NCBI GenBank assembly: GCA_025055575.1
Contig: JANWWP010000066.1
Span: 4,332 to 68,331 of the forward strand
Direction: 5' to 3'
DNA length: 64,000 nt
From: Flavobacteriales bacterium
Lineage (GTDB): Bacteria; Bacteroidota; Bacteroidia; CAIKAF01
Shown in pieces: positions 12,867-54,990 of this stretch; within the stretch, counting starts at the first letter, position 1, and each line of letters starts with the position of its first letter. Made by a program: the position numbers and the translations under genes. A model generated the notes under the pieces. The model saw only the letters and a list, made by a program, of their open reading frames with translations. It had not been told where the DNA came from and ran no database searches.

Positions 12867-13451
12867 ATGGACCAAAAATATTGGGACCAACGCTGGATGT
12901 GTGGAGACACTGGCTGGGATATCGGCTATCCCGCCCCGGCGATCCTCGATTATGCTGCCGGACTGCCGGATAAAACGATCCGCATTTTAATTCCTGGCTG
13001 CGGCAATGCCTACGAAGCTCAAGCCTTGCTGGATATGGGATTTAAGGATGTGCATCTCCTGGATATCTCCCCCACCCTGACGGACCGCCTGAAAGAACGT
13101 TTTCAGCCATGGTCTGGTCATATTCACATTCATTGCGAAGATTTTTTTGAGCACCAGGGCTCCTACCACCTTATCCTGGAACAAACATTCTTGTGCGCCC
13201 TGAATCCCTCCCAGCGCGAGGCTTATGCCCAAAAATGCCAGCAACTTCTCTATGCCGGCGGACGCTTGGCCGGGCTCCTGTTCGACACAATCTTTGAACA
13301 GGAGGGTCCGCCCTTCGGTGGAACAGCGATGGAATACCGTGCATTATTTGGAAAATATTTCCGCATTCTGAAGCTGGAAAAATGCCTTCTGAGTATTCCA
13401 CAGCGCCAGGGCCGGGAGGTATTTTTTGAAGTCGAAAAAATAGGCCCCTGA
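12867..13451 (+). CDS. TPMT-family (thiopurine S-methyltransferase-like) SAM-dependent methyltransferase
   Basis: N-terminal WDQRWMCGDTGWD motif and glycine-rich SAM site ILIPGCGNAYEA. Confidence 0.65.
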   Translation: MDQKYWDQRWMCGDTGWDIGYPAPAILDYAAGLPDKTIRILIPGCGNAYEAQALLDMGFKDVHLLDISPTLTDRLKERFQPWSGHIHIHCEDFFEHQGSYHLILEQTFLCALNPSQREAYAQKCQQLLYAGGRLAGLLFDTIFEQEGPPFGGTAMEYRALFGKYFRILKLEKCLLSIPQRQGREVFFEVEKIGP

Positions 13452-13591: not shown

Positions 13592-15487
13592 TTGAAAAAT
13601 CTTCCAGGGATATTCAATGGCCTCGGAATTGGTTGGCATGGTCTAACAGCCACTTGTATAATTCTTTTCACTTTTCCGGCCCTTGATTTTCAAACTTTTT
13701 CGGGTCTGGACCCCGCTTATTTTTATGCGTTAAATTATTTCTTTAATCAACGCCTCGTAGCTGGGCAGGATTTTATTTTTTCTTATGGCCCTTTAGGTTT
13801 CCTGAAAGACCCGCAGGCAGCCGCTGGCTTAGACCTGGTGGGGGTTGTAGGTATCCTGATTTTACGATGGGTTCTAGCAGGGTATTTATTGCAGTTGTCC
13901 TGCCTGCATGCACGTCTTCCCCTGCCTCTGGGAATATTTCTGGTTTTGTTGACTCTGGCTCAGCTTCAAAGTTTGGACTATGTGCTTATTCTGTTGGCGG
14001 CTTCAGCTCGTATGGAATTCGGCCGATCCGGGCGCTGGATTCATGCTTCTGTGGCGTGGGCCACAGTGGCTCTTGGAGCTTTGGTGAAAATCAACATTGG
14101 CTTCACAGCCCTGACCCTGACCGGTGCACTGGTCTTTCTGGAAACGATTCAAAACGGGCAATGGAAACGGTTTTTAACTGAACTGACCTTGCTGCCCAGC
14201 TTTTACTCTATATTTTGGTTTTTGGTCTATGGCCACTGGAAAGGCGCCCTAGACTATGTGCGCAATAGCTTTCTCTTGTCTCCCGATAATCTTCATACCA
14301 CACACCTGCCCACCGCACTGGACTTGGACGCCTTGTGGGCCGCTTTAGGTCTGTTTTTTTTGGCAGGGCTTTGGAAAGCCCGCTTTCAGAGGGATTGGAT
14401 GGGGTGGAGTATGGTGCCCGCATTCTTTTTAGTTTTTAAATACAGCGTCGCCCGTTGTGATTTCAGCCATGTGATCCATGGATTCCACTTTCTGGTAGTG
14501 GCTGGGGCGTTGTGGATTTTTTCAGGCCGGGGAGGTTCGGCCACGATAGCGTTTTGGGGTTTGGCGCTCATGTTGTGGCGGTCGGCCTTGCATTCTCTGC
14601 CCTACGTGCCACAGCCCGTCGCTTTTCCGGAAATCAGCCTGCGCGGATTTCGACAATCGGTGTGGAATTATTCTCAAACACATCAAAAAGCCCTCGACAT
14701 GCTCCCCGATAATCTGCGCGCTGATACGCTCCCCGGGCCATGGTTGCAAAGACTGAAGGATGCCAAAGTGGATTTTTTCCCCTGGGTCACCTCGTCGGTG
14801 GCATTGTACGGGCTCCGTTATCATCCCCGACCTTTTATGCAGCATGGACTGGCTTCCGGACCTTTTTTCGATCGTTTGAATGCCGGATGGCTGCTTTCAT
14901 CCAAAGGGCCCGATTATGTCATTTGGCACGGCGGATGGGACAGCTCAGGCATAGCCACTATGGACGGGCGATATGTGGGACTGGAACACACCCGCACCCT
15001 GGAAGCATTGATGCAAGGCTATGAAGTGGCGGAATCGGACAGCCGAATGGGCCTTCTCCTGAAAAGAAAAACGTTTAAAACCACCCCCGCAATTCCAGAA
15101 CCGAATGAATTGAAATGCTTTGAACGGTTAATGTGTAGATGGAATCAATGGGTTTTCATTCCTTCTGAAAATAAAGACAGTAGGCTTTTAGGCCGTCTTT
15201 CAGGAAATGTAAGTTTAAGTGGATTTTTGAGAAAATGGCTGTTTAAAGACGCCGTGTTGGATGTGGAAATTCAGGACCATTTGGGTAGGATTTTCAGGCA
15301 CAGGCTAGCGTTGCCGGGCGCTATGGATAGAATGTACATACATCCTTACTTTCCCGAATTCCCCTTTTTGCACTTAGGAGTTTCGGTCAAAGCTTTACGC
15401 TTAATATTAGTGGAAGGCGTGCCTGTGCTGAAGGAACCCTTCGTTCTGGAACTGTTTCAACAAGAAACGCTCCCTGTGGCCCCTTAA
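13592..15487 (+). CDS. Large polytopic membrane protein (631 aa): about 10 N-terminal TM helices plus a ~300-aa soluble C-terminal domain. GT-C-like architecture, no recognised family.
   Basis: Hydrophobic helices through about aa 330, then a hydrophilic C-terminus. Preceded by a 140-bp AT-rich promoter region. Immediately upstream of gmd/fcl. Confidence 0.4.
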   Translation: MKNLPGIFNGLGIGWHGLTATCIILFTFPALDFQTFSGLDPAYFYALNYFFNQRLVAGQDFIFSYGPLGFLKDPQAAAGLDLVGVVGILILRWVLAGYLLQLSCLHARLPLPLGIFLVLLTLAQLQSLDYVLILLAASARMEFGRSGRWIHASVAWATVALGALVKINIGFTALTLTGALVFLETIQNGQWKRFLTELTLLPSFYSIFWFLVYGHWKGALDYVRNSFLLSPDNLHTTHLPTALDLDALWAALGLFFLAGLWKARFQRDWMGWSMVPAFFLVFKYSVARCDFSHVIHGFHFLVVAGALWIFSGRGGSATIAFWGLALMLWRSALHSLPYVPQPVAFPEISLRGFRQSVWNYSQTHQKALDMLPDNLRADTLPGPWLQRLKDAKVDFFPWVTSSVALYGLRYHPRPFMQHGLASGPFFDRLNAGWLLSSKGPDYVIWHGGWDSSGIATMDGRYVGLEHTRTLEALMQGYEVAESDSRMGLLLKRKTFKTTPAIPEPNELKCFERLMCRWNQWVFIPSENKDSRLLGRLSGNVSLSGFLRKWLFKDAVLDVEIQDHLGRIFRHRLALPGAMDRMYIHPYFPEFPFLHLGVSVKALRLILVEGVPVLKEPFVLELFQQETLPVAP

Positions 15488-15511
15488 ATTATCTAATTTT
15501 GCCTTTAGTTT

Positions 15512-16627
15512 ATGACCAAACGCGCGCTCATCACAGGCATCACCGGACAAGACGGGGCCTATTTAGCAGAATTTCTCCTACAGAAGGGCTATGAAGTACA
15601 CGGCATCAAACGCCGCAGCTCCTTATTTAATACCGATCGGATTGATCATCTGTACCAGGACCCACATGATGCCAACACCCGCTTTCATTTGCATTATGGA
15701 GATCTGACGGACTCTCTCAATCTGACGCGGATTATTCAGGAAGTCCAGCCCGATGAAATATACAATCTGGGCGCCATGAGCCATGTGAAAGTGAGTTTTG
15801 AGGAGCCGGAATACGTAGCCAGCGCCGATGGCCTGGGGGCCTTACGCATTCTGGAAGCTGTACGGCTTCTGGGTTTGGCCGAGCGAACGCGGGTGTATCA
15901 GGCTTCCACCTCAGAATTGTATGGCTTGGTGCAAGCTATTCCCCAAAACGAAAAAACCCCGTTTTATCCCAGGTCTCCTTACGGTGTTGCCAAATTGTAT
16001 GCTTTCTGGATCACTGTCAACTACAGGGAAGCCTACAACATTTTTGCTGTGAATGGGATTTTGTTTAATCACGAAAGTCCTGTACGGGGCGAAACTTTCG
16101 TCACCCGAAAAATCACACGCGCTGCAGCCCGCATTGCGCTGGGTCTTCAGGATTGTTTGTATTTGGGCAACCTGGATGCCAGAAGGGACTGGGGGCATGC
16201 ACGGGACTACGTGGAAGCCATGTATCTGATGCTCCAGCAGCCCGAACCGGAGGATTACGTCATTGCAACTGGCGTCACGGTGCCCGTGCGTCAGTTTGTG
16301 CACATGGCCTTCTCGGAACTGGGTATCGCCCTTGCCTTCGAAGGCCAAGGCAAAGAAGAAGTGGGCCGTGTGGCCCATTGCAGCCACCCGGAATTTCAGC
16401 TTCCGGAAGGCAAAGTGGTGGTTCGGGTGGACCCAAAATATTTCCGTCCCACCGAAGTGGATCTGCTTGTGGGCGATGCCTCCAAAGCCCGAGAAAAGCT
16501 GGGTTGGACACCTAAATATAATTTGGAAGCCTTGGTGCAGGAAATGGTGGCTTCTGACCTGGCTCTATTTCGTAAAGAGAAATATTTAAAAGAAGGCGGC
16601 CATCGGATTTTGCATTACGGAGAGTAA
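15512..16627 (+). CDS. gmd: GDP-mannose 4,6-dehydratase
   Basis: [37 protein letters not shown]..., highly characteristic of Gmd. About 370 aa. Confidence 0.95.
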
Positions 16628-16638
16628 AAAAGGTCTTC

Positions 16639-17613
16639 ATGGAACGTTCCAGCAAAATTTATGTCGCAGGCCACCGGGGTATGGTAGGGTCAGCCATTGT
16701 CCGACGGCTTCAGGCAGAGGGCTACAACAATCTCACGCTTCGTACCTCCACAGAACTCGATTTGCGCAACCAGAAAGCTACAGAAGATTTTTTTGATACG
16801 GAAAGACCCGAATATGTTTTTCTGGCGGCGGCCCGCGTGGGCGGCATTTGGGCCAACAGCACCCGACCGGCGGATTTTTTATATGATAATCTGCTCATTC
16901 AGTGCAACGTCATTCACGCAGCATGGAAATTTGGAGTGAAGAAACTTTTGTTTCTTGGTTCCTCTTGCATTTATCCCCGCCTTTCACCGCAACCCATTCG
17001 AGAAGAATATTTGCTTACGGGGCCTTTTGAGCCGACTAATGAGCCCTACGCGCTGGCTAAAGTGGCCGGTTTGAAAATGTGTACTGCCTATCGGCGTCAA
17101 TATGGTTGCAATTTTATTACCATCATGCCCACCAATTTGTATGGGCCCGGGGATAATTATGATTTGTATTCATCCCATGTTTTGCCGGCTCTTCTGCGTA
17201 AATTTCACGAAGCCAAAATCCAAAATTCAAACAAGGTCATAGTATGGGGCACTGGAAGCGTATTACGAGAATTTATGCATGTGGATGACCTGGCGGATGC
17301 ATGTCTTTTCCTTATGCTGCATTATGACGAAGAATTGTGGATGAATTGCGGAACGGGGGAAGAACTTTCCATTCGCCAGTTGGCTGAAATTATTCAGGAA
17401 ATCACAGGCTGCAACGCCGCCATAGAGTTTGACCCGCAAAAGCCCGACGGAATGCCGAGAAAATTACTGGACTCCAGCCGCCTAAGAGGTCTGGGATGGC
17501 AACCACGCATCGGATTAAAGGAAGGAATACGGGATGTGTACCAAAATTCTTTCCTAAAAGAGTACAATTCTGCGCTCATGCGGGAAAAAGCCATTCCCAT
17601 GGCTTCAAATTAA
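16639..17613 (+). CDS. fcl: GDP-L-fucose synthase (GDP-4-keto-6-deoxy-D-mannose 3,5-epimerase/4-reductase)
   Basis: KIYVAGHRGMVGSAIVRRL Rossmann motif, catalytic Cys in LFLGSSCIYP, His in SSHVLPALLRKFHEA. Confidence 0.9.
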   Translation: MERSSKIYVAGHRGMVGSAIVRRLQAEGYNNLTLRTSTELDLRNQKATEDFFDTERPEYVFLAAARVGGIWANSTRPADFLYDNLLIQCNVIHAAWKFGVKKLLFLGSSCIYPRLSPQPIREEYLLTGPFEPTNEPYALAKVAGLKMCTAYRRQYGCNFITIMPTNLYGPGDNYDLYSSHVLPALLRKFHEAKIQNSNKVIVWGTGSVLREFMHVDDLADACLFLMLHYDEELWMNCGTGEELSIRQLAEIIQEITGCNAAIEFDPQKPDGMPRKLLDSSRLRGLGWQPRIGLKEGIRDVYQNSFLKEYNSALMREKAIPMASN

Positions 17614-17630
17614 CGGAAGAAATCGGCTGC

Positions 17631-18635
17631 ATGGCAATGGACTTGGACAGCCGGATTTTTGTGGCCGGCCATAGGGGGCTGGCAGGGTCGGCCGTGCTTC
17701 GAAGGCTTCAAAAAGAAGGCTTTAGACACCTTTTCACGGCCCCGTCTTCCATTTTGGACTTACGCCGGCAGAAGGATGTCCAGATTTTTTTCAATGAGAC
17801 TCGGCCCGAATTTGTTTTTATGTGCGCTGCCACAGTGGGAGGCGCCGAGGATAATCTTCAAAGACCCGGGGCGTATTTGTATGACAATCTGATGATGCAA
17901 GCCAACGTCATTAATGCGGCTCAGGCTTCAGGAACCCAAAAACTTCTTTTAATAGGTTCCTCCTATTTGTATCCAGCTCAAGCACAGCAACCCATGGTGG
18001 AAGATGCGCTGTTGACAGGCAGCTTTGAACCCGTAAAAGAATTTTACTCCCTTTCCAAAGTGGTGGGCATTAAACTTTGCGAAGCTTTTAAGCGACAAAT
18101 GGATCTAAACTTTTTTTCTGTGATGCCCCCCAACCTCTATGGACCTGGCGACAAATATGATACCAGGTCCGCACACGTCATTGCTGCCTTGTTAAGACGG
18201 TTTCATGAAGCCAAAGAAAAAGGCACGCAGGAAGTGGTCATTTGGGGCAGCGGCTCGGCTCTTAGGGAGTTCCTTCATGTAGATGATTTGGCTGATGCCT
18301 GCGTGTTTCTCATGAAAAACTTTAATCCGGAAAGTTTTCCCGATAACCTTGGGATGCCTTGGATCAATTGCGGATCCGGAGAGGAGATCAGTATTCGGGA
18401 TTTGGCCCAACTCATTCAAAAAATCGTAGGATATACTGGAAAAATAATTTTCGATCCCACCCGGCCCGAAGGTGCGCCCAGGCGCCTTTTAGACAGTTCC
18501 CGGCTGCGAAGGTTGGGGTGGCAGCCCACCAAGGATTTGCGAAAAGGTCTTGAAGAAGTGTATCAAAATTTTTTCTTAGCCGATTATGCCCGCAGCCTTG
18601 AGCGGGAGGCCCGCAAGTCCTCTGCCGCATCATGA
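17631..18635 (+). CDS. Second Fcl-like SDR paralog (GDP-sugar epimerase/reductase family) with the catalytic Cys replaced by Tyr
   Basis: RIFVAGHRGLAGSAVLRRL, LLLIGSSYLYPA (Cys replaced by Tyr), SAHVIAALLRRFHEA. Start taken at ATG 17631, just after the fcl stop. The track ORF start at 17496 overlaps fcl. Confidence 0.75.
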   Translation: MAMDLDSRIFVAGHRGLAGSAVLRRLQKEGFRHLFTAPSSILDLRRQKDVQIFFNETRPEFVFMCAATVGGAEDNLQRPGAYLYDNLMMQANVINAAQASGTQKLLLIGSSYLYPAQAQQPMVEDALLTGSFEPVKEFYSLSKVVGIKLCEAFKRQMDLNFFSVMPPNLYGPGDKYDTRSAHVIAALLRRFHEAKEKGTQEVVIWGSGSALREFLHVDDLADACVFLMKNFNPESFPDNLGMPWINCGSGEEISIRDLAQLIQKIVGYTGKIIFDPTRPEGAPRRLLDSSRLRRLGWQPTKDLRKGLEEVYQNFFLADYARSLEREARKSSAAS

Positions 18636-19570
18636 AAAATTTCCACCCGCGGGTGAAATGCAGTGCCTTTTCCCTCAACAGGGATGAAGAACTGAAAAAT
18701 CTCTTGTTATCTGTATTTCCTGAAGCGGTCATCGGCCCCACAGACGAGAATATTCCACTCGACGAATTTTTAGATTTTGCCTCGGATGCCGAAGCCCTCA
18801 TTGTAGGGCGGGAAAAGGTGGATGAACGGCTGTTCGAGGCAGCGCCCCATTTAAAGGTGATTTCCAAATATGGGGTCGGTGTGGATAATATTGATTTCAA
18901 TGCCTGCCAGGCTCATGGAGTCCACGTTCTCCATGCAACGGGTGTCAACCGCCAATGTGTGGCCGAACTCACGCTGGGCTTCATTCTGGCCAGCCTGCAC
19001 AACATCGTTTTCTCCGACAGACTCCTGCGCCGGGGCCAATGGGTGAAAGACGGAGGATGGGACCTGGCCGGAAAAACAGTAGGTATTGTAGGCTTTGGTA
19101 ACGTAGGAACGCAGCTTGCCAGGCTGTTGCAGCCCTTTGAGGTGAAAATCTTGGTGCATGATATTTTAGACAAAACAGATGCTTGCAAACAATTTTTACA
19201 TACCCAACAAACAGACCTGAACACGCTTCTTACAAGTTCAGATATAGTTTCCCTGCATGTACCCCTAACATCTCTGACAAGGAAAATGATAGCAGCACCT
19301 CAATTTGCCATCATGAAAACAGGGTCCATTTTAATTAACACCGCACGCGGCGGAATCCTCGATGAAAGCGATCTTTTGAATGCCTTAAATTCGGGGTCAA
19401 TACGAGCAGCCTGTCTGGACGTCTTTGAAGAAGAACCACTTACCCAACACCCTTTATTGCAGCACCCACGGGTTATCACCACGCCACATATCGGAGGAAA
19501 CAGCCGTGAAGCCCGTCGCGCAATGGCACATGCCGCTATTTCGATGTTAGCGGAATATTTAAAAATTTAA
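18632..19570 (+). CDS. D-isomer-specific 2-hydroxyacid dehydrogenase (phosphoglycerate/glycerate dehydrogenase-like), NAD-binding
   Basis: GKTVGIVGFGNVGTQLARLL NAD-binding motif. ATGA overlap with the upstream gene. Confidence 0.8.
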   Translation: MKNFHPRVKCSAFSLNRDEELKNLLLSVFPEAVIGPTDENIPLDEFLDFASDAEALIVGREKVDERLFEAAPHLKVISKYGVGVDNIDFNACQAHGVHVLHATGVNRQCVAELTLGFILASLHNIVFSDRLLRRGQWVKDGGWDLAGKTVGIVGFGNVGTQLARLLQPFEVKILVHDILDKTDACKQFLHTQQTDLNTLLTSSDIVSLHVPLTSLTRKMIAAPQFAIMKTGSILINTARGGILDESDLLNALNSGSIRAACLDVFEEEPLTQHPLLQHPRVITTPHIGGNSREARRAMAHAAISMLAEYLKI

Positions 19571-19654
19571 ATCTTAAAAAATACTAAGATTTCAGGCAAC
19601 TATTCGTTAAAAAGAGGTCTACTAAAAAAGGTAAGACAAAGGATTACTATTTAA

Positions 19655-20830
19655 TTGTCACATTTTTGGGTCTTGGAAAATTCTGAAAAAAAGAAAATTT
19701 GGCTTTCCTCACCGCACATGTCTGGCTACGAGGAAGCCTATATTAAGGAAGCGTTTGCATCGAATTGGATCGCACCCTTGGGTCCGCATGTGGATGCTTT
19801 TGAAAAAGCGCTGTGTTCTTATACTGGAGCTCGGCATGCCGCAGCCTTATCCTCCGGTACGGCAGCTTTGCATTTGGCTTTAATGCTGTGCAATGTGCAG
19901 CGGGGGGATGAAGTGATTTGCCAGTCTTTTACCTTTTCAGCTTCCGCCAATCCCATTGTTTATCAGGGGGCAACTCCGGTATTTGTGGACAGTGAGGAAG
20001 ACACTTGGAATATGGACCCCCAACTGTTGGAAGAAGCCCTGAAAGATCGACTGGCACGCGGTAAAAAAATAAAAGCGGTCATCGCAGTGCATTTGTACGG
20101 CATGCCGGCAAAATTGAATGAAATTAAAGCGCTGTGCGAAAGGTTTGAAGTACCTTTAATTGAAGATGCGGCTGAGGCTCTGGGTAGTCAATACCGAGGT
20201 CGTGCATGCGGCACTTTTGGTCGTTTTGGGATTCTCTCCTTCAATGGCAATAAAATAATCACCACCTCTGGGGGCGGTGCCCTATTGGGCGAAGAGGCTC
20301 AAGCCATCGAAAAAGCCCGGTTTTTGGCTACACAGGCACGCGATCCCGCACCCCACTATCAGCATTCACATATCGGATATAACTATCGACTTAGCAATGT
20401 GTTGGCTGGAATAGGAAGAGGTCAAATGCAAGTGTTGGATGAACGCGTCGCTCAAAGACGTAGAAACTTCGATAGATATGTGCGGATTTTCTCTGGTTTT
20501 CCGGGTATTGATTTCCAACCGGAAAGTCCAGATAATTTTTCCAACCGCTGGCTCACTTGTATCCTGATAAATCCTGAGTTGGCAGGTTTTGACAGAGAAA
20601 AATTGAGGTTGGCTCTGGAAAATGAAAACATTGAAAGCCGTCCTTTGTGGAAACCCATGCACTTGCAACCGGTGTTTAAAGATGCGCCTGCCTATGGCGG
20701 CAGCGTCTGTGCCCGTTTATTTCAGGATGGATTGTGTCTTCCTTCCGGCTCCAATCTGAGCCCGCAAGATTGGGAAAGAATTGAAGAGACGCTGTATTCT
20801 GTTCTAGAATCTAATACGGTCTCACGATAA
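19655..20830 (+). CDS. DegT/DnrJ/EryC1/StrS-family PLP-dependent sugar aminotransferase (PglE/WbpE-like, nucleotide-sugar 4-aminotransferase)
   Basis: N-terminus LSSPHMSGYEEAYIKEAFASNWIAPLGPHVDAFEKAL closely resembles PglE-type enzymes. PLP lysine in SFNGNKIITT. Confidence 0.85.
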   Translation: MSHFWVLENSEKKKIWLSSPHMSGYEEAYIKEAFASNWIAPLGPHVDAFEKALCSYTGARHAAALSSGTAALHLALMLCNVQRGDEVICQSFTFSASANPIVYQGATPVFVDSEEDTWNMDPQLLEEALKDRLARGKKIKAVIAVHLYGMPAKLNEIKALCERFEVPLIEDAAEALGSQYRGRACGTFGRFGILSFNGNKIITTSGGGALLGEEAQAIEKARFLATQARDPAPHYQHSHIGYNYRLSNVLAGIGRGQMQVLDERVAQRRRNFDRYVRIFSGFPGIDFQPESPDNFSNRWLTCILINPELAGFDREKLRLALENENIESRPLWKPMHLQPVFKDAPAYGGSVCARLFQDGLCLPSGSNLSPQDWERIEETLYSVLESNTVSR

Positions 20831-22788
20831 TGAGAAGGATAACTTTTCGTCTCAGCGGTCATCTTGGGCGGTATCTATCCAGAAGGTACATGTCCCGCAT
20901 CACTGTTCTGGTGACGGATATTTTCCTTTCTGGCGTGGCATACGCTATAAGTTTTATCATTTTTTGGCAGTATGTAAAAAAGACCCCGCTTCTGGAGCAT
21001 CTTCCGGCGCTTGTATGTGTGAGCATGGTGGTTAAGGGCTTGTGGTTTTTTGTTTTCAAGACCTACAATGGAGTTGTCCGCTTTGCAGGAGAGAAAGATG
21101 CTTTTCGCATTTTGGCGGCCCACTTTTTTGCTTTGGCCAGTGGCCTGGCCATAAATAAATTTTTGTTAGAACCTCTCCTGGGTTACAGAGGGCCTAACTC
21201 TGTTTTGTTTTTTGATTTTCTCACCGGTACTTTCTTTTTGGTAGGCTATAGAGTTTTTATCCGGATCATTCTGGATAAAAGTCAGGCCGGATTTGGTCTA
21301 AAAATTCCCACCCTCATTTACGGGGCCGGTCAATATGGCTACATCACAAAAAGAGCTCTAGAAAAAGATCCTCAAAACCGCTTCAGGATTGTAGCCTTTG
21401 TGGATGACAACCCCGCTCTGAATAAAAAGATTGTGGACGGCGTTCCGGTGTATCACACGGAAACAAACCTAGAACGGCTCGTCCGGGAGAACGATATTCG
21501 GCAAATAATTATTGCTATTCAAAGCCTGAGCGAAAAACGTAAGAAAGACATCATCGAACAATGCCTTGCACTCAATTTAAAAGTGCTGAAGGTGCCTTCC
21601 GTGCGCAGTTGGATTCACTCCGAAATGAGCGCGGCCAAGCTGAAAGATGTCCGGCTAGAAGACCTGCTTGGTCGCGAACCTATCGTCATTCACACCGAAG
21701 CCATTTCCAACCAATTAAAAGATCGTCGAGTGCTTATTACGGGAGCTGCCGGTTCCATCGGGAGCGAAATCGCCCGCCAGGTGGCAGGGTTCCAGCCGGC
21801 CGAACTGGTGCTCCTGGATAATGCAGAAAGCCCCTTGGTGGAAATTCATCTCGAATTGCAGGAAAGCGCCCAGGATCAAAATATCGCCGCTGTAGTGGCC
21901 GATGTTTCTGACAGCGGCCGAATGCAAGAAATCTTTTCCCGCTTTAAGCCTGAAATAGTTTTTCATGCGGCTGCATACAAGCATGTGCCCATCATGGAAC
22001 TCAATCCCTCTGAAGCCGTTCGGGTGAACGTGCTGGGCACAAAACTGCTGGCAGATCTTTCGGTGGAGTATGGAGTGGAAAAATTTGTCATGGTGTCCAC
22101 CGATAAAGCCGTTAACCCCACGAACGTGATGGGGGCCAGCAAGAGAATTGCCGAAATCTACACCCAGTCCTTGGATAAACTGGCTTTAGAAGGTCGGCAT
22201 CGGACCCGATTTGTGACCACCCGTTTTGGTAATGTGTTGGGCTCCAACGGGTCTGTGATTCCCCGTTTCCGTAAGCAAATAGAAAACGGCGGACCGGTCA
22301 CCGTCACGCATCCGGACATTACACGCTACTTCATGACCATTCCCGAAGCCTGTCGTCTGGTGCTGGAGGCCGGAGTGATGGGCCAGGGAGGTGAAATTTT
22401 CCTTTTCGACATGGGCGAAAAAGTGCGAATCCTGGATTTGGCCGAAAAAATGATCAAACTCTCCGGTAAAAAACCTTATGAGGAAATAGATATTGTCTTC
22501 ACGGGTTTGCGTCCCGGGGAAAAGCTCACCGAAGAGCTGCTCTGCGACTCAGAAAAAGCGCTTCCCACCCACCATCAGAAAATCATGAAAGCGCGCGTGG
22601 CCGAATATAATTTTACCTATGTTCAGTCTAAATTACAGGCCCTGATTCGGGCTTACGAAACCCGCGAAGACATGGCCCTCGTGGCTGTCATGAAAGAGAT
22701 GGTCCCTGAATATGTGAGCAACAATTCTGTTTTTTCAATTTTGGATAAGTCGCCCGTGATGAATGATTTGTCCGGAGAAGGCCTCTAA
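20830..22788 (+). CDS. Membrane-anchored NDP-sugar 4,6-dehydratase of the PglF/CapD/WbpM family
   Basis: 4 N-terminal TM helices, Rossmann motif VLITGAAGSIGSEIARQV, and TDKAVNPTNVMGASKRIAE (YxxxK-type SDR). TAATG stop/start overlap with the aminotransferase. Confidence 0.85.
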   Translation: MRRITFRLSGHLGRYLSRRYMSRITVLVTDIFLSGVAYAISFIIFWQYVKKTPLLEHLPALVCVSMVVKGLWFFVFKTYNGVVRFAGEKDAFRILAAHFFALASGLAINKFLLEPLLGYRGPNSVLFFDFLTGTFFLVGYRVFIRIILDKSQAGFGLKIPTLIYGAGQYGYITKRALEKDPQNRFRIVAFVDDNPALNKKIVDGVPVYHTETNLERLVRENDIRQIIIAIQSLSEKRKKDIIEQCLALNLKVLKVPSVRSWIHSEMSAAKLKDVRLEDLLGREPIVIHTEAISNQLKDRRVLITGAAGSIGSEIARQVAGFQPAELVLLDNAESPLVEIHLELQESAQDQNIAAVVADVSDSGRMQEIFSRFKPEIVFHAAAYKHVPIMELNPSEAVRVNVLGTKLLADLSVEYGVEKFVMVSTDKAVNPTNVMGASKRIAEIYTQSLDKLALEGRHRTRFVTTRFGNVLGSNGSVIPRFRKQIENGGPVTVTHPDITRYFMTIPEACRLVLEAGVMGQGGEIFLFDMGEKVRILDLAEKMIKLSGKKPYEEIDIVFTGLRPGEKLTEELLCDSEKALPTHHQKIMKARVAEYNFTYVQSKLQALIRAYETREDMALVAVMKEMVPEYVSNNSVFSILDKSPVMNDLSGEGL

Positions 22789-27562: not shown

Positions 27563-28621
27563 TTATTTTGGGATGAGCAAGGCGGTTATTTTTACCATTG
27601 TTAATAATAAAAACACCGCCACCAACTGATGGGCCACCCCAAGAACCAAGGGCACGGCCAGCACAAGTGTCAAAATGCCCAACAACACCTGCACATGCAC
27701 CCACAGAATTAACTGACGTCCCGAAGCGGACCAAATGCCCCCCGCTCTTACCAACCGAAAACCCATCCAGGTGAGAAGACCATACACTACCCAAGCCCAG
27801 GTGCGGTGAAAAAATTGAAGCCCGGATTCATTTTCCAAAAAATTCACATACCAAGGCTGAGCCGCCCACACCGACTCCGGAATCCAGGCATCCCCCATGC
27901 GCGGCCAGGTATTGTATAGCTGCCCCGCATCTTTCCCGGCCACAAACGCACCGTAGATAATCTGGAGAATGAGGGCCAAAAGGGAAATCCACAGCAGGCT
28001 TTTTTTGACAGGAGGAGTTCCCTGTGCGGTTTGAACCCGCGGAGGATTCAAACGCAGCAACTGCCAGTAAATGGCCACGGCAATGGTCAGGGCCGTGCAT
28101 AGATGGGCCGCCAGCCTAAAGTGGCTCACGCGCGGTTCATCCACCAGGCCGCTTTTCACCATATACCAGCCCAAGAAGCCCTGAACACCTCCCAGAATTC
28201 CAATCAACAAAATACCAGGCAGCATAGGCCGGGGTATCTGACGGCGAATCCAAAAAGCAGCAAGAGGAACAATATAAACAAGCCCTATAAGGCGGGCAAT
28301 GAACCGATGGATCCATTCCCACCAGAAAATGGTTTTGAAATCCTGCAGGGTAAAGCCAGAATTTTTATATAAAAACTCCGGTGAATTTTTGTATTTATCA
28401 AATTCGTTCTGCCAGTCCTGTTCTGTTAAGGGCGGAAGAACTCCGGTCACGGGCCGCCAGTCGGTGATGGAGAGTCCGCTTTCTGTGAGACGGGTGATAG
28501 CGCCTACCACCACCATCAGCACCACCAGCACCAAGCCCGTGCGCAGCCAAAGGCGCACAGGATGCAGTGCGCGGTGAGGTGAATTCTCGGGCGTCAGGGA
28601 TGCGCTGGTCGGAGGTACCAT
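27563..28621 (-). CDS. ctaA: Heme A synthase (COX15/CtaA family)
   Basis: AITRLTESGLSITDW motif and multiple His-containing TM helices. Confidence 0.8.
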   Translation of the reverse strand: MVPPTSASLTPENSPHRALHPVRLWLRTGLVLVVLMVVVGAITRLTESGLSITDWRPVTGVLPPLTEQDWQNEFDKYKNSPEFLYKNSGFTLQDFKTIFWWEWIHRFIARLIGLVYIVPLAAFWIRRQIPRPMLPGILLIGILGGVQGFLGWYMVKSGLVDEPRVSHFRLAAHLCTALTIAVAIYWQLLRLNPPRVQTAQGTPPVKKSLLWISLLALILQIIYGAFVAGKDAGQLYNTWPRMGDAWIPESVWAAQPWYVNFLENESGLQFFHRTWAWVVYGLLTWMGFRLVRAGGIWSASGRQLILWVHVQVLLGILTLVLAVPLVLGVAHQLVAVFLLLTMVKITALLIPK

Positions 28622-28639
28622 TTCGGCCGAATCGGATTT

Positions 28640-31459
28640 TTACTTTTCTGGTTTCAAAACAAACAAAGCTTCGTGGGTGTCGTTAAAATATTTCTGGGAC
28701 CATTCCTGTAATTTTTTGATTGTCAAGGCATCTAGCCAAGTATTGTAAGCGGTGAAATCAAAGAAAGGTTTTTGATAGAGGGCCATTCTGAAAAGTTGAC
28801 CTGCCCACCATTCGTTGGTTTTTTGATCGGTTTCCAGCTCACGACGTAAGGTTTCCCGCACTTTTTGAAGATAGGAAGCCTCCGTGCCTTTTTCCTTCAC
28901 TTCGCGTACCACGCGGCGCGTTTCAGATACAAGCTCCTCCACTCTCTGTGGATCACAACTAAATTCGATCTCAGATTCAAAATGGGGCTCCGGCCATGGG
29001 GCCACGACAGTGCGGCACCGCACATAATAAACACCGCCCTTGTCTTCCCTCAGAACTTCGCGAAGCCTGATGGCCATCAGACTTGCGGCCGCCTTGGCCT
29101 CCCAAGCGCTTTCATCCGAAAATTCCGAAGCGCCATGGATTTTGAAAACCACCTGAGATTTGGGATCCAGGCCTTTGTTAAGGATATATGAATATTTGCC
29201 CTTCACAGGACGATCGCCGCGGTCCACCCAGTTTTCCCTCTGCCTCGATGCCGGCAGGGAAGCTATGTAGGTCGTCACCAGGTCCTGACATATTTCCTCG
29301 TCCAGACTTCCCACAATGATGAAGGCAAAATCGCCGGGATTGGCCAGCCGCTCCTTCATGATGGCCCGGGCCCGCTCCGGATTAACTGAATTCAGCTTCT
29401 CCGCTATAGGCCTCAGGTAGCGCGGGTGGCGGTTGTGGTACAAAAAATTCACACTGTCATTGAATACCACTTCGGGGTTGTTCACCATCAAGGCCAGCGC
29501 CGTTTTTTCTTTTTCCAAAGCCAAGCGCACTCCATTGTCGTCCATCCGGGGATTTTGGAAGTACAAGTACACCATTTGAAACAAGGTTTCAATGTCGCCT
29601 TTTGCGCTTTCTCCGTTCAAAGTTTCGTAATATTTTTCCACAGAGAACGACAGGTTCAGATTTTTGCCCTTCATCATTTTCTCAAGAGTGGAAGCGTCAA
29701 AGGGGCCCAGGCCGCTCTCCCGCATCATGGCATCCACCATTTCGGCATGTATCAAATCTTGGTCCTCATATATAGAGGTGCCCCCTCGGCTCACAGCCCG
29801 GAACAGGATCTGATCATTTTTGAAATGGGTGGGCTTAAAATAAACCCGCGCCCCATTGGCCAGGATAAATTCACGGATATCTGTGTCCGGTAAGGTTCGG
29901 GTCATGCGCACGGCGCCTTTTTGAGGTTTTTGGTCCAGAAGGCTCTCCGCAACCCGCACTTCCGAGAGGGGCTCCGGACTGGAAGACAGGGCTTTTTCAA
30001 AAGCCTGGCGAAAATCCTCTTCTTTAGGCGGTATTTCACCTTCTTTTTCAGCCCCCATGGAAATGATCTTAGGAAAAGCCAGCCGGCTTATATATTCCGG
30101 CAAAAGGGCTTTCACATCGGCCATGGAGAGTTCAGAAAGAAGGCGCTTTTTCTTTTCGTATTCTGCCTCAGGGGCCGGAAAAGGCTGATCCTGAAGAAAA
30201 TGACCCACCAGGCGCATGGCCAGTTTGTCGGATTCCCGCTTATCCCGCTCGTTGTATTCTGTTTCGGCTTGTTTTAAAAGATCGGCTTTTTGACGGTCCA
30301 ATTCAGCCTGGGTGAAGCCATGAAGTTGCACGCGGCGCAATTCGGTGGCCAGCCATTCGGTGGCAAGAACATCCTGACCCGGCTTGGGCACCACCACCCC
30401 AAAAAAGGCACTGTTGTTCCGAAGAAAATCAAAAGCCCCCGCAAAACCAAACAGATAGGGGCTTTCAGGCTTTTTAGCCAGATCCGAGAGCCGTTCGTTC
30501 AACATACCGTTGATCAGGTCTGTGGTGAGCTTCCGCTTGTAATCAGCCTCTGTTTTAAAGGGCTTTTTTTCCAGCATATAAATCAATTGCACGGCGTTGA
30601 ACATGGCTTCGGGATCACGCACCACGGCCACTTGAAGACGGTCGTTGGCAGGCACCTTGTAAGACTCACGACGCCGCGGTACGGACGGCTTGGACAGGGT
30701 TGAAAAGTGCTTTTTGATTTTACCTTCCATATCGGAGGGGTTAACATCCCCCACCACCATCACGGCCATCAGGTCCGGCCGATACCAATCGCGGTAGAAC
30801 CGCCGGAGCACCTCATGCTTAAAACTTTCTAAAATGTCTTTTTTTCCGATGGGCAGACGATCGCCATAGCGCGTGCCTCCAAATATCACAGGCCAGTATT
30901 TCTGCCGCATACGCTCCTCAGCGCCCTGCCCCAACCGCCATTCTTCCACCACCACGCCGCGCTCCTTCTCTACTTCCTCCGGATCGAACGCCAGTCCCCC
31001 AGCCCAGTCGGCCAGGATTTCAAGCGCTTTGTCCACCACGCCGGCGCTGTCGGTGGGCACCTGCAGCATGTACACGGTTTCGTCAAAACTGGTAAATGCA
31101 TTCAAATGGGGTCCAAACTTGGTGCCCACGCTTTCAAGAAAGTTCACCAATTCGTTTTTCTGGAAACGGCGGGTTCCATTAAATGCCATGTGTTCACAAA
31201 AGTGGGCCAAACCTTGTTGGTCGTCATCTTCCTGGCAGGAGCCCGCGTTTACCGCCAGGCGCATTTCCACCCGTTTTTCGGGCTTGCTGTTACGAAGAAT
31301 GTAATATTTAAGTCCATTGGGAAGGACACCGGTGCGGACGGCAGGGTCCAATGTGAAAAAAGGCGGATTAGAGGCCTTTTGGCACCAACTCTTGCCCGTC
31401 CAAAAAAACAAAAAAATGGGAAGGACCCTTAAAAGGTATGGCCTGAAATAAGTGTACAT
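28640..31459 (-). CDS. M16-family (pitrilysin/insulinase-like) zinc peptidase, single-chain two-domain, secreted
   Basis: Inverted zinc motif HFCEHMAFNGT (HxxEH), signal peptide, about 940 aa. Confidence 0.8.
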   Translation of the reverse strand: MYTYFRPYLLRVLPIFLFFWTGKSWCQKASNPPFFTLDPAVRTGVLPNGLKYYILRNSKPEKRVEMRLAVNAGSCQEDDDQQGLAHFCEHMAFNGTRRFQKNELVNFLESVGTKFGPHLNAFTSFDETVYMLQVPTDSAGVVDKALEILADWAGGLAFDPEEVEKERGVVVEEWRLGQGAEERMRQKYWPVIFGGTRYGDRLPIGKKDILESFKHEVLRRFYRDWYRPDLMAVMVVGDVNPSDMEGKIKKHFSTLSKPSVPRRRESYKVPANDRLQVAVVRDPEAMFNAVQLIYMLEKKPFKTEADYKRKLTTDLINGMLNERLSDLAKKPESPYLFGFAGAFDFLRNNSAFFGVVVPKPGQDVLATEWLATELRRVQLHGFTQAELDRQKADLLKQAETEYNERDKRESDKLAMRLVGHFLQDQPFPAPEAEYEKKKRLLSELSMADVKALLPEYISRLAFPKIISMGAEKEGEIPPKEEDFRQAFEKALSSSPEPLSEVRVAESLLDQKPQKGAVRMTRTLPDTDIREFILANGARVYFKPTHFKNDQILFRAVSRGGTSIYEDQDLIHAEMVDAMMRESGLGPFDASTLEKMMKGKNLNLSFSVEKYYETLNGESAKGDIETLFQMVYLYFQNPRMDDNGVRLALEKEKTALALMVNNPEVVFNDSVNFLYHNRHPRYLRPIAEKLNSVNPERARAIMKERLANPGDFAFIIVGSLDEEICQDLVTTYIASLPASRQRENWVDRGDRPVKGKYSYILNKGLDPKSQVVFKIHGASEFSDESAWEAKAAASLMAIRLREVLREDKGGVYYVRCRTVVAPWPEPHFESEIEFSCDPQRVEELVSETRRVVREVKEKGTEASYLQKVRETLRRELETDQKTNEWWAGQLFRMALYQKPFFDFTAYNTWLDALTIKKLQEWSQKYFNDTHEALFVLKPEK

Positions 31460-35300: not shown

Positions 35301-36153
35301 GAATTTGATTTGCCGTACCTGGAGCCAACCAGGTGGGGGGCAGGGAAGCGCCTGAAGAAAGGAGCAAACTACCGTTTAATCCGGCAGAGTTGTTAGGCAT
35401 GAAAGCATTATCAAGGCGAAGATTTCCGCTCACATGAAGACGCTCTGTCGGAGTGGAGGTACCCACCCCAACGTTACCTGAGGCTGAAATCCTTAAACGT
35501 TCGTTACTATTGGTTGAAAAAGCCAACTCATTGGCAGCGGCCCTGTACATACCCATGCTGGTCGTAGAGTTAAATCGAAAGGCAGGGACAGAAGCCGTCC
35601 CGTCGTTGGCAATAAATCCACTCTCGGCCCGCACCCCCCCAGCCACATGCAACTTATGACTGGGGGATCCGGTGACTCCAATCCCCACAGAACCCGAGCC
35701 TGTAAACCGAAAATCAAAACCAGCCTGGGCAATATCTGTGTTTTGAAGAAGCGTACCGCCCAGCTGAATATGGCTACCCGTCATTGTGAGCCCATTGTCG
35801 GCCGTCACGTTGGCTACACCATTTTGAAGCCGAGTCCATTGAGTGCCATTCCAATAATAAAATCCAGGCGTCACATTCGTCGGAGGAGTGCCCGCCGTGG
35901 CGGTATTGTAAACCAAAAGGCCTGTAGCGCAACAGCTCACCACGGTTGTGTTGTCCAAAGTTCCTGTGAGAGCAAGCCTTGGAACCAACACACCACGATT
36001 CCCCGCCTTGATATCTAACTGAGCGCTGGCATCCGGAGAGGATCCGTCCGTATTTATACCCACATTTTGACCCAAGAGGCCAAAGGGCAAAGTTATCAAC
36101 AAACCACTGTAAAAAATTTTATTCAAAGTGTAGTTATTATTTTTTATTTTCAT
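32371..36153 (-). CDS. Surface fibre protein with phage-tail-fibre-like architecture: signal peptide, long Gly-rich YadA-head / Hep_Hag-like repeats, C-terminal peptidase-S74 intramolecular-chaperone domain and coiled coil
   Basis: Repeats of the form NxASGxYSxIgGGxxNxAsGxxSxVaGG across aa ~370-1000. C-terminus STRGKKDRF...IGPYAEDF...SDVAGVALLGIQALNERSQ...LEQELKQLKQENSQL matches the S74 auto-cleaving chaperone domain of phage endosialidase / L-shaped tail fibres. Confidence 0.65.
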   Translation of the reverse strand: MKIKNNNYTLNKIFYSGLLITLPFGLLGQNVGINTDGSSPDASAQLDIKAGNRGVLVPRLALTGTLDNTTVVSCCATGLLVYNTATAGTPPTNVTPGFYYWNGTQWTRLQNGVANVTADNGLTMTGSHIQLGGTLLQNTDIAQAGFDFRFTGSGSVGIGVTGSPSHKLHVAGGVRAESGFIANDGTASVPAFRFNSTTSMGMYRAAANELAFSTNSNERLRISASGNVGVGTSTPTERLHVSGNLRLDNAFMPNNSAGLNGSLLLSSGASLPPTWLAPGTANQILTIGGAGTPVWTNSNFWNLTGNSGTNPATNFIGTTDNQPIVFRANNTEVFRMNVPGTSPGNWSIQRGTGNTRGEHAVDLQSARANLDEVASGYASVIGGGIYNKSSHYYTTVAGGRSNVASSEYATVGGGGVNVANGYASTISGGGGNQAPGNHSFIGGGSNNQTSGNTSVVCGGAHNSASGAYSAIAGGQRLTLGSYSFGYSGQITPTSTNLSSFSNIAAFVDVNLWLYNRDNTARELRFYEPTSNASGSAEYTAFRAQSQTSNITYTWPSTLSPVTTPSAGILQTDGSGNLSWLDPSVLGGGGSGWLLNGNGGTDPTTNFLGTTDANPLVVRTNNSERLRVTSGGNVGINTTSPSERLVVNGNIGLQSGTAAFVGTLDNQPLQLRVQNQNSLILNPPGFSAPAWSIQRDLGGNPRGLRAVDWQIDRMSATQVASGNHAVISGGRRNTASGADAVVAGGLNNTSSGDNSFIGGGQGNSSAAIYSAVGGGYQNQATGGASVVAGGFQNQASNTTATVAGGSSNFATGNTSSIGGGANNSASGTYSVIAGGILNSATGNSSALLGGSTNTVAGQFASIGGGYSNDANSYGSALFGGINNSINSGGPYGFIGGGSDNQVISQYGAVSGGQGNLVGSDYGFIGGGNANFVNYEGSVVAGGANNSVNGYYSCIGGGAFNQIGGSGGTDYYHVISGGYNNVINEGWTTGTISGGSNNQIDNDYATVGGGDNNSVLASGGTIAGGTNNAIYSSASYGSVIGGQDNVVSGGYSTVLGGIGNTANASFNLVFGQNVSPTVTETHRVYFFGSGSGSPSGFLVVNRFDGDHPIHVGTNSSNGNGAYLSAGGVWTNVSTRGKKDRFTALVPDEVLQKISQLKVEGWFYKESDEYHIGPYAEDFFSAFHTGVQNAPGASHSLAASDVAGVALLGIQALNERSQKAAQKQEYLEKLVLQLEQELKQLKQENSQLRSWIFNASGNVSAHE

Positions 36154-36442: not shown

Positions 36443-36850
36443 ATGAGTTTTAATTTAGTTACGTATATTAAGGAAACTGAAACTTTGTTCCAAATTAAGG
36501 CTGAAAGAAACTTGCATGGCACATCGTGGCAATGGGAAGTGCATGTGTCCAGCAGCCATCCCATTCTGGCCGCTCATTTCCCCGGACTGCCTGTAGTGCC
36601 GGGCATCATGCAACTGCATCTGGTGCGCCGGGCTGCAGAACATGTATTAAAAAAATCTCTGGCTTGGGAAGGTCTTCAGAAAGCCAAGTTTTTTAATCCC
36701 TGGACGCCGTCCCAAGCCCCAGTTGCCTTGCTCATGCTTTCCATCCAGGAAGGGCCGGACAAAACCACCGGACGCTGGCGCGTGGATGCCCGGATTGCCC
36801 ACGGGGAAATGGCCATTTTGCAGGTAAAAGGACAACTGCGCGCATGCTAG
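36443..36850 (+). CDS. FabZ/FabA-like hotdog-fold (3R)-hydroxyacyl-ACP dehydratase-family protein
   Basis: HFPGLPVVPGIMQLHL matches the FabZ active-site region HFPGxPVxPGVL. Confidence 0.6.
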   Translation: MSFNLVTYIKETETLFQIKAERNLHGTSWQWEVHVSSSHPILAAHFPGLPVVPGIMQLHLVRRAAEHVLKKSLAWEGLQKAKFFNPWTPSQAPVALLMLSIQEGPDKTTGRWRVDARIAHGEMAILQVKGQLRAC

Positions 36851-38070
36851 TCCCTGAGGAAAAAGCTGAAATCATTCGGCTAAGCCGGCAATTCCGGGTG
36901 TGTTGCGTGGTACCGTTTTTCAACAACCGACAGCATGTCACTCAAGTTCTAAAGCAGCTCCTGGCTCTGGGCTTTCCGGTGATTGCTGTGAGCGATGGCA
37001 GCACCGATGGTTCTGCAGAGGAAGTTCAGCCATTGAATCTTCGCGCCTTTCTGAAATATTCCCCCAACCGCGGAAAAGGCTATGCCTTGCGCCTGGCCTT
37101 CCAGAAATCTCTGGAACTTGGCTACGCATATGCCATCACGGTGGATGCGGACGGGCAGCATGTCCCTTCCGAAGCGCTGGCGCTTCTGAAAGCGCTGGAG
37201 GCCCACCCGGGTGCCCTGGTGGTGGGAGCGCGCCGCATGGAAGGAAAGGAGCAGTCCCAAGCCGCCGGATTTGCCAATCGCTTTTCCAACTTCTGGTTTG
37301 GCGTGCATGCCCTCCAAAGGCTTTCCGATACCCAAAGCGGCTTCAGGCTGTATCCGCTGAGAGCTGTGACAGGCTTGCGCCTGATGGGCCGACGTTATGA
37401 ATTTGAAGTGGAAGTCCTTGTGAAAGCGGCCTGGCGGGGCATTAAAATTGTGGAAACCCCGGTAGATGTCTGCTACCCGCCCCGGTCCGAACGGGTGAGT
37501 TTTTTCAGGCCCGGCTGGGATTTTTTCCGTATTTCCCTCATGAATACCTACCTCACGTTGGGGGCCCTGCTTTACGGACACTGGGTCATTCTGGCCCGGA
37601 GGTTGTCTTGGAAAAGTCTGACCAGCTTCCTGCGCCGTCATGTTTTCAGCCGCGAGGAACCTGTGTGGAAAAAAGCCGCCAGCATTGGCCTGGGGGTGTG
37701 CATGGGCATCGTGCCTGTGTGGGGTTGGCAAATGCTGTCGGCCGGTATTTTAGCCCACATGCTGAAATTAAATAAAGGTTTGGCCGTTATCAGCTCCAAC
37801 ATCTCCATGCCGCCCATGTTACCTTTTATTATTTGGGGAAGTGTGGAAACCGGCGCCCTTTTCTTTCCTCCAGAACGGCGGTTCAAACCTCGTTGGGAAT
37901 ACCTGCAAGCCGATCCCTGGCAAGCCTTAGGAGCGGGAGGTATGCAATATGTCCTGGGCGCTGTGGCACTGGGTATCCTGGCCGGTCTTGCGGCTTTTGT
38001 TATTTCTTTGCCCCTACTTCATTTAGTCCGCCAGAAGAATTGGAAGAAACAAGTCCCGCCCTCCGCCTAA
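36844..38070 (+). CDS. GT2 polyprenyl-phosphate glycosyltransferase (GtrB/ArnC/DPM1-like) fused to a C-terminal DUF2062-like membrane domain
   Basis: VVPFFNN...SDGSTDGS, NRGKGYAL, ITVDADGQH and DTQSGFRLYP motifs. C-terminal TM helices. 7-nt overlap with the hotdog gene. Confidence 0.7.
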   Translation: MLVPEEKAEIIRLSRQFRVCCVVPFFNNRQHVTQVLKQLLALGFPVIAVSDGSTDGSAEEVQPLNLRAFLKYSPNRGKGYALRLAFQKSLELGYAYAITVDADGQHVPSEALALLKALEAHPGALVVGARRMEGKEQSQAAGFANRFSNFWFGVHALQRLSDTQSGFRLYPLRAVTGLRLMGRRYEFEVEVLVKAAWRGIKIVETPVDVCYPPRSERVSFFRPGWDFFRISLMNTYLTLGALLYGHWVILARRLSWKSLTSFLRRHVFSREEPVWKKAASIGLGVCMGIVPVWGWQMLSAGILAHMLKLNKGLAVISSNISMPPMLPFIIWGSVETGALFFPPERRFKPRWEYLQADPWQALGAGGMQYVLGAVALGILAGLAAFVISLPLLHLVRQKNWKKQVPPSA

Positions 38071-38087
38071 GAAACCTTCTCCGGCAC

Positions 38088-54871: not shown

Positions 54872-54990
54872 AAATAGATTTTTCCAAAATGAAAAAAAGA
54901 CTATAGGCCATGAATTTTGAAAATATTTTCAATCTAATAACCTAAAGATTAAATAATTTCCACTATCCTTGACGACTGTTTTTTGACCAC

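Follow-up and report, generated by a model that had tools for sequence, protein, structure and literature searches.

The window analysed here is a stretch of 64,000 nucleotides (nt) from a Flavobacteriales bacterium (assembly GCA_025055575.1, contig JANWWP010000066.1), and its positions 13592-22788 hold seven open reading frames (ORFs) on the + strand, the opposite strand being without a sizeable gene. They encode a 631-residue membrane protein followed by enzymes of sugar-nucleotide synthesis, namely Gmd, two Fcl proteins, a 2-hydroxyacid dehydrogenase (2-HADH) and relatives of PglE and PglF. In our interpretation the locus is an operon of two sugar-precursor modules whose first gene encodes a glycosyltransferase from a GT-C family not yet classified, a reading that we hold at a probability of roughly 0.55. 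Outside the cytoplasm, enzymes of the GT-C class decorate the glycans of bacterial surfaces and influence serotype, susceptibility to phages and immune recognition; the class is still gaining families, GT136 dating from 2024. What the locus offers is modestly new: a large unnamed family, so far without a Pfam or NCBIfam model, to which a GT-C fold and glycan-gene neighbours can now be assigned, and an Fcl paralogue with a conserved Cys-to-Tyr change, the remaining sugar-nucleotide genes being ordinary. A preliminary description, made from the letters alone, had proposed a co-directional cluster of seven genes for glycan precursors. All seven are present in the ORF list, and the family assignments of Gmd, Fcl-1 and the PglE-like and PglF-like proteins bear the proposal out.

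Fold and family of the 631-residue protein

The AlphaFold model of the 631-residue protein, built from 150 sequences, reaches a predicted local distance difference test score (pLDDT) of 92.9 and a predicted TM-score of 0.93, and supersedes a first AF2 model from 10 sequences (pLDDT 70). It predicts 11 transmembrane (TM) helices, a 53-residue loop after TM1 (EL1, residues 28-80) that carries a helix at 39-52, and a periplasmic C-terminal domain (about residues 335-631) ending in a β-sandwich like those of lectins and carbohydrate-binding modules (CBMs). Lys and Arg are concentrated in the predicted cytoplasmic loops, which by the positive-inside rule gives an N-in topology. When the model was compared with the PDB by Foldseek, the top 10 matches were GT-C enzymes only (EmbB, EmbC, EmbA, AglB and AftD), with E-values from 1.8e-5 to 4e-3; EmbB was best, at 1.8e-5 and a probability of 1.0. 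The long structural matches were likewise GT-C enzymes throughout (Emb, AftD, AglB, ArnT, Pmt, PglB), and the C-terminal domain resembles the AlgX carbohydrate-binding module and galectins (probability 0.95-0.99). The protein thus shows the features of the class, an N-in polytopic domain with a long helical EL1, structural similarity and a conserved acidic residue in EL1. The modelled structure supports the GT-C reading, the similarity being at the level of the fold only. The GT-C-like layout put forward in the preliminary description therefore holds, and a structure search in which a transporter without this fold might have emerged returned GT-C enzymes instead.

Conservation was read from the same 150 sequences, which share 17-48% identity with the query, apart from one copy that is 95% identical. 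D40 of EL1 is invariant in the 150 sequences, and R288, H293, D394, P397, R413, D427, D458 and R460 are kept in at least 90% of them; D60 and D73 are invariant inside the subfamily. R288 and H293 lie at the periplasmic end of TM9/10, within a motif (R288/D290/H293) that follows TM9. These patterns make D40, R288, H293, D394 and D458 testable candidate catalytic residues.

At the level of sequence, the protein has no Pfam and no NCBIfam match, and thus none to the named GT-C families (PMT, PMT_2, STT3, Glyco_transf_22, Alg6_Alg8, YfhO, Arabinose_trans and others); a profile search of PDB sequences gave nothing relevant, and hhalign found no match between the 150-sequence family profile and a PMT_2 protein that neighbours a distant family member. 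Judged by these profiles, it falls outside every sequence family named in Pfam or NCBIfam; GT136 was compared by its description. A word-indexed search of 5.8 billion proteins recovered nine clear homologues (38-95% identity) and one marginal one (E 8e-4), and a single species representative in GTDB carries a protein of this type. An exhaustive HMMER profile search, by contrast in scale, reached 4,843 cluster representatives at E < 1e-3 and 409 at E < 1e-30, all of them full-length matches, which gives a superfamily of about 4,800 clusters counted at 50% identity. On these matches the 631-residue protein represents a subfamily that is itself rare but belongs to a large superfamily without a name; ten distant members had no Pfam match at E up to 0.1, and the source names of cluster members are "hypothetical" at best. 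A role as a phylum-wide Bacteroidota O-oligosaccharyltransferase is ruled out by the rarity of the subfamily, which is nearly absent from sequenced genomes, and the protein has no bearing on the identity of that as yet unidentified enzyme.

Two sugar-nucleotide modules and their conservation

The fucose branch announced in the preliminary description is present. Gmd scores 592.6 bits against TIGR01472, above the curated cut-off of 415, and matches PF16363 at E 1.8e-151. Fcl-1 reaches 482 bits against NF047922 (cut-off 500) and keeps all catalytic residues of GDP-L-fucose synthases, its GSSCIYP, Y..K (Tyr/Lys pair) and His motifs being conserved in all orthologues; on these motifs it is very likely a true GDP-L-fucose synthase. 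Fcl-2 shares 55% identity with Fcl-1 and falls further under the same cut-off, at 405 bits. In all three of its orthologues (window, L001 and L003, the latter being our labels for loci of relatives) GSSYLYP replaces GSSCIYP, so that a Tyr stands at the position of the catalytic Cys; alignment to GDP-fucose synthases in the PDB indicates that Fcl-2 retains the fold, the reductase pair Tyr/Lys and the acid His. This residue, C109 of the E. coli enzyme and C116 of the human one, serves as general base in the epimerisation at C-3 and at C-5 alike, the human C116A variant being inactive and C116S about 1000-fold slower (PMC12362431). Since the catalytic Cys is replaced, Fcl-2 is probably not a fucose synthase; lacking the cysteine base for 3,5-epimerisation, it would most likely make a different GDP-6-deoxyhexose, and other products of this type are known or have been proposed for homologues of Fcl (PMC8787198). 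Fcl-2 is conserved, not decaying, and with its constant Cys-to-Tyr change it is a candidate for an enzyme producing a rare GDP-6-deoxyhexose. The gene is dispensable within the clade: L007 and L005 have no copy, and the possibility of a pseudogene in L005 was dismissed, the corresponding position (13993-14970 of that locus) being an AT-rich non-coding spacer of about 1 kb with no ORF of at least 60 residues. This spacer could stem from a deleted gene or a mobile remnant, or represent an RNA.

The PglE/PglF pair forms the other module. The aminotransferase matches PF01041 at E 1.9e-96, scores 399 bits against a LegC-family model (cut-off 420) and is closest to Campylobacter jejuni PglE (1o61/4ztc, E ~1e-102), with its NGNK lysine motif aligned. 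The 652-residue protein carries PF02719 (Polysacc_synt_2, E 3.8e-118), PF13727 (CoA_binding_3) and an N-terminal TM region; its nearest match in the PDB is C. jejuni PglF (5bju, E 1.4e-87), which shares its STDKA motif. With the C. jejuni enzymes for the first two steps to di-N-acetylbacillosamine as their closest solved homologues, and catalytic motifs in register, the two proteins are assigned to the synthesis of UDP-4-amino-4,6-dideoxy-HexNAc. The bacillosamine-like amino sugar first proposed stands to that extent; the product may have either the gluco (bacillosamine) or the galacto (AAT-Gal) configuration. The C. jejuni pathway also has the PglD acetyltransferase, PglC and PglB, none of which the present locus contains.

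In the relatives, the order GT-C gene, gmd, fcl, (fcl-2), 2-HADH gene is kept in L001, L003/L004, L005/L006 and L007, that is, in every relative with enough context, and the linkage persists at 35-95% identity, with a GT-C/gmd junction of 24-44 nt. The preliminary description had named unlinked genes in relatives as the outcome that would speak against it; what we found is a block linked more than by chance. The pglE-pglF pair follows the block in L001, L003 and L007 and is absent in L005. Because of this absence, and of the 84-nt gap that sets the pair off in the window, we divide the locus into two modules; the same arrangement gives no support to the joining of both sugars in one glycan, as had been suggested.

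Upstream of the GT-C gene, L003, L005 and L007 have an M16 peptidase gene and ctaA, whereas the window has the genes for PBP4 and a TPMT-type methyltransferase. In the window both genes, ctaA (heme A synthase, COX15/CtaA) and that of the M16 peptidase, are found inverted at 27563-31459 (- strand); its lineage therefore underwent a local rearrangement that placed the PBP4 and TPMT-type genes upstream, and the core block survived rearrangement on both sides. The TPMT-type methyltransferase itself was considered as a part of the system and is not supported, being absent upstream in relatives and without homologues beside distant family members, where methyltransferases of other types are common.

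The fifth member of the first module, the 2-HADH, is a D-isomer-type enzyme resembling phosphoglycerate dehydrogenase (PGDH) and glyoxylate reductase (PF02826/PF00389; best PDB match 1wwk). Its best NCBIfam match is PGDH (SerA, TIGR01327), at 247 bits against a cut-off of 454 for a model that describes the long form; the Arg/Glu/His catalytic motifs (NTARG, EEEP, TPHIGG) are complete in the translation, and an NCBI protein that is 100% identical is named phosphoglycerate dehydrogenase. Outside the clade its homologues form a broad cloud of proteins of about 306-312 residues at 42-48% identity, and homologues of this type (43-47% identity) occur inside and outside polysaccharide loci. A 47%-identical one lies in a housekeeping context in an unrelated lineage (L014, 8001-9524), where a TPMT-type methyltransferase directly follows; in the window a methyltransferase of that type (12867-13451) directly precedes the GT-C gene, which may be coincidence. 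A 43%-identical one in Reichenbachiella (L016, 5315-12205) is embedded in a large polysaccharide locus among SIS_2, GFO_IDH_MocA, DUF386 and inositol-phosphatase-family genes, an arrangement that suggests an uncharacterised sugar pathway using this type of dehydrogenase. The gene stays beside gmd-fcl in all relatives, including L005. A hydroxy-acyl decoration of the amino sugar, the role first offered for this enzyme, is possible and pure speculation, and it is weakened because L005 keeps the gene without pglE-pglF.

Features of the locus, with a possible partner elsewhere in the window (positions in the window; junctions are those with the next gene of the locus)
Feature	Position	Strand	Junction	Basis
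631-residue GT-C-like membrane protein	13592..15487	+	24-nt gap	fold from AlphaFold model and Foldseek
gmd, GDP-mannose 4,6-dehydratase	15512..16627	+	11-nt gap	TIGR01472, PF16363
fcl-1, GDP-L-fucose synthase (3,5-epimerase/4-reductase), very likely	16639..17613	+	17-nt gap	NF047922 and catalytic motifs
fcl-2, diverged Fcl paralogue, 334 residues	17631..18635	+	4-nt overlap (ATGA)	NF047922 below cut-off; Cys to Tyr
D-isomer-specific 2-hydroxyacid dehydrogenase (2-HADH), 312 residues	18632..19570	+	84-nt gap	PF02826/PF00389
PglE-like pyridoxal-phosphate-dependent sugar aminotransferase	19655..20830	+	1-nt overlap (TAATG)	PF01041; PDB 1o61/4ztc
PglF/WbpM-like membrane-anchored UDP-GlcNAc 4,6-dehydratase, 652 residues	20830..22788	+		PF02719, PF13727; PDB 5bju
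GT2+DUF2062 protein, polyprenyl-phosphate sugar synthase type, possible partner	36844..38070	+		PF00535 and PF09835

Two gene starts call for comment. For fcl-2 the ATG at 17631 is favoured by homologues and by the 95%-identical contig L001 over the 17496 of the mechanical ORF list, and the start codon of pglE is uncertain by about 6 codons (385 residues in L001). The overlapping junctions of the preliminary description are found at two of the six (fcl-2/2-HADH and pglE/pglF), the other four being gaps. The G+C content of the locus (0.47-0.50) is the same as that of the remaining window, so there is no sign of a recent island, and a scan for consensus promoters and terminators gave counts no higher than in shuffled sequence.

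Proposed function and competing explanations

The wider superfamily helps to place the protein. In the loci of four of five distant relatives, a small glycosyltransferase of family 2 (GT2) adjoins the GT-C-like gene, with ArnC, AglJ, PgfS and dolichyl-phosphate hexose synthase as best matches; the same four loci also hold short-chain dehydrogenases/reductases (SDRs) of NDP-sugar, tyvelose-epimerase-like type, and the fifth has a PMT_2 protein. A metagenome scan gave 79 loci, 74 of them non-redundant, and a GT2 of the polyprenyl-phosphate-synthase type lies in the flank of 16 of the 74, within 3 kb in 15 cases. Among 108 immediate neighbours, a Pfam census put Glycos_transf_2 first (11), ahead of class I methyltransferases (8), Epimerase/GDP_Man_Dehyd (6), GT1 (4) and Polysacc_synt_2 (4). 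We read this neighbourhood as typical of GT-C enzymes whose donors are polyprenyl-monophosphate sugars, though it is far from universal in the family. In one locus (L011, 2156-6917) a distant superfamily member lies directly downstream of a PMT_2-family GT-C protein, two GT-C types in tandem.

Known systems offer parallels of differing closeness. The GT136 enzyme ORF12 of Citrobacter youngae, compared by its published description only, likewise has 11 predicted TM helices and a β-rich, CBM-like C-terminus. In it, TM1 leads into a small helical domain in the periplasm and is directly followed by an Asp, the candidate catalytic residue, and an Arg stands in the loop behind TM9; this Asp and this Arg were shown to be essential (PMC11127046). 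In Gtr-type three-component systems (synthase, flippase and GT-C protein), the counterpart is the polyprenyl-phosphate sugar synthase-type GT2 that adjoins our distant family members. The present locus differs: the ORF list and Pfam show neither a GT2 synthase nor a GtrA/SMR/MATE flippase, so it falls outside the three-component definition, and its linked genes make GDP-6-deoxyhexoses instead of the phosphoribosyl-pyrophosphate-derived pentofuranoses or UDP-Glc of GT136 and Gtr systems. The mycobacterial arabinofuranosyltransferases Emb and AftD (GT53 and related), the best Foldseek matches, combine a GT-C domain with periplasmic carbohydrate-binding modules, and use a polyprenyl-monophosphate sugar donor and a polysaccharide acceptor; they differ in length (1,050-1,400 against 631 residues), show no sequence similarity and TM-scores of only ~0.3, and the host here is a Gram-negative member of the Bacteroidota. 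From ArnT and PMT (GT83/GT39) the protein is set apart by the missing Pfam PMT/PMT_2 match and the negative hhalign comparison with a PMT_2 protein.

We envision that in module 1 (the GT-C gene, gmd, fcl-1, fcl-2 and the 2-HADH gene) Gmd and Fcl-1 would turn GDP-mannose into GDP-L-fucose, and that Fcl-2 would start from the same 4-keto intermediate and yield another GDP-6-deoxyhexose. The 631-residue protein would sit in the inner membrane, with D40 (after TM1), R288 and H293 (after TM9) and D394 and D458 (soluble domain) facing the periplasm. Like ArnT, Emb and Gtr, it would move a sugar carried on polyprenyl phosphate onto a periplasmic glycan, which the lectin-like domain would help to bind. 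The sugar donor may come from the GDP-6-deoxyhexose branch encoded alongside, which is the weakest step of the proposal because a synthase GT2 and a flippase are both missing from the locus. Module 2 (pglE, pglF) would supply UDP-4-amino-4,6-dideoxy-HexNAc to a glycan assembled by enzymes encoded elsewhere. Of this picture, the identities of the genes, the GT-C-like fold, the conserved gene order and the exchange of Cys for Tyr are shown, and catalysis, the lipid-monophosphate donor, the glycan as acceptor and a tie between the fucose branch and the donor are inferred. A bolder form of the proposal has the protein found a new GT-C family at the level of CAZy, with a polyprenyl-phosphate-6-deoxyhexose made from GDP-sugars (L-fucose or the Fcl-2 product) as its donor, added to a periplasmic surface glycan. 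In this full form we think the proposal improbable; if true, the superfamily of ~4,800 clusters would amount to a widespread, overlooked route of post-assembly glycan decoration.

Several observations weigh against an operon whose leading enzyme is tied to its neighbours. Neither the locus nor its surroundings within 10 kb in L001, L003, L005 and L007 contain a GT2, a GtrA/SMR/MATE flippase, an initiating transferase or an acetyltransferase. The sole GT2 found in the window, the GT2+DUF2062 protein, is 21 kb away from the GT-C gene, and the two are not neighbours in relatives (the best NCBIfam matches of the GT2 protein, AglJ and PpgS, are both far below cut-off). Among the distant metagenome loci, 58 of 74 have no GT2 nearby. 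We know of no lipid-linked donor derived from a GDP-6-deoxyhexose, such as polyprenyl-phosphate-fucose, described in bacteria, and our search turned up no precedent for polyprenyl-phosphate-fucose. The end of ctaA lies 4-10 nt from the start of the GT-C gene in the relatives, which means that close packing is no proof of shared function, and some of the conserved gene order may simply reflect inherited synteny, as all subfamily members come from one narrow clade. Finally, PIG-U and GAB1, which are non-catalytic GT-C-like proteins, are among the structural matches and score as high as true transferases.

Much of this would also suit a genuine lipid-donor glycosyltransferase that shares no function with the genes around it, gmd, fcl and pglEF feeding cytoplasmic GT-A or GT-B enzymes elsewhere (for an O-antigen, a capsule or a Bacteroidota O-glycan) and the donor being a different one, made for example by the GT2+DUF2062 protein. 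The missing GT2 and flippase and the equally tight ctaA speak for such an arrangement, as do the occurrence of gmd beside family members outside the subfamily in only one of the 74 loci and the fact that GT-C enzymes cannot take GDP-sugars directly. We nevertheless consider it unlikely, while giving it serious weight, since the GT-C/gmd junction outlasts rearrangements on both sides and distant members adjoin pairs of sugar-modifying SDRs, a parallel to gmd and fcl. The preliminary description had left open an oligosaccharyl or a glycosyl transferase. The glycosyltransferase-type fold stands, and the oligosaccharyltransferase fits worse: the GT2 neighbours of relatives are of the ArnC/AglJ type, the best matches are Emb and AftD, and the C-terminus is lectin/CBM-like, for which reasons the transfer of a single sugar from polyprenyl monophosphate onto a glycan fits better. 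An oligosaccharyltransferase, ligase or polymerase acting on a preassembled glycan that is linked to undecaprenyl diphosphate, contains fucose and a bacillosamine-like sugar and is passed on to proteins or lipid A-core would draw on PglB, AglB and STT3 among the structural matches, and sugars derived from PglF and PglE are typical at the reducing end of such glycans. We regard it as very unlikely, because the GT2s of relatives are monophosphate-sugar synthases and the relatives do not go with Wzx or initiating transferases, the best-matching Emb, AftD, Pmt and ArnT use monophosphate donors, the CBM-like C-terminus points to a glycan acceptor, the nine sequences and one GTDB species representative do not suit a phylum-wide O-glycosylation enzyme, and pglEF is absent from the L005 locus. 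The rank of PIG-U and GAB1 beside true transferases, together with the failure to find sequence similarity to any characterised glycosyltransferase, would instead suit a non-enzyme, a GT-C-like scaffold or transport-related protein comparable to PIG-U in the glycosylphosphatidylinositol transamidase. This too seems highly improbable to us: across ~150 divergent sequences an invariant Asp in EL1 and conserved Arg and His residues where TM9 reaches the periplasm correspond to how catalytic residues are placed in GT-C enzymes, such as D31/R349 of GT136, and the neighbourhood is enriched in glycan genes.

Remainder of the window

In a Pfam scan of nearly all window ORFs of at least 150 residues, initiating phosphoglycosyltransferases, hexapeptide acetyltransferases, Wzx and Wzy were absent, in agreement with what the preliminary description had reported missing, and a few membrane ORFs remained without any match. 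Two polytopic membrane ORFs (491 and 370 residues) lie downstream of a class A penicillin-binding protein gene at 53396-56103, in a low-GC (0.415), T-rich stretch; the 491-residue one (53396-54871), which by eye could pass for a Wzx-like flippase, has no Pfam support and was set aside, and the 370-residue one has a weak MFS_1 match only. The GT2+DUF2062 gene is followed by one for a DUF5686/CarboxypepD_reg protein (36844-40589 for both), the two ORFs overlapping by ~240 nt in the mechanical list. At 32371-36153 on the - strand, a 1,260-residue ORF without a significant Pfam family has a faint Peptidase_S74 (endosialidase chaperone) match near its C-terminus. CHU_C, Por_Secre_tail and GldH genes in the neighbourhood fit the Bacteroidota.

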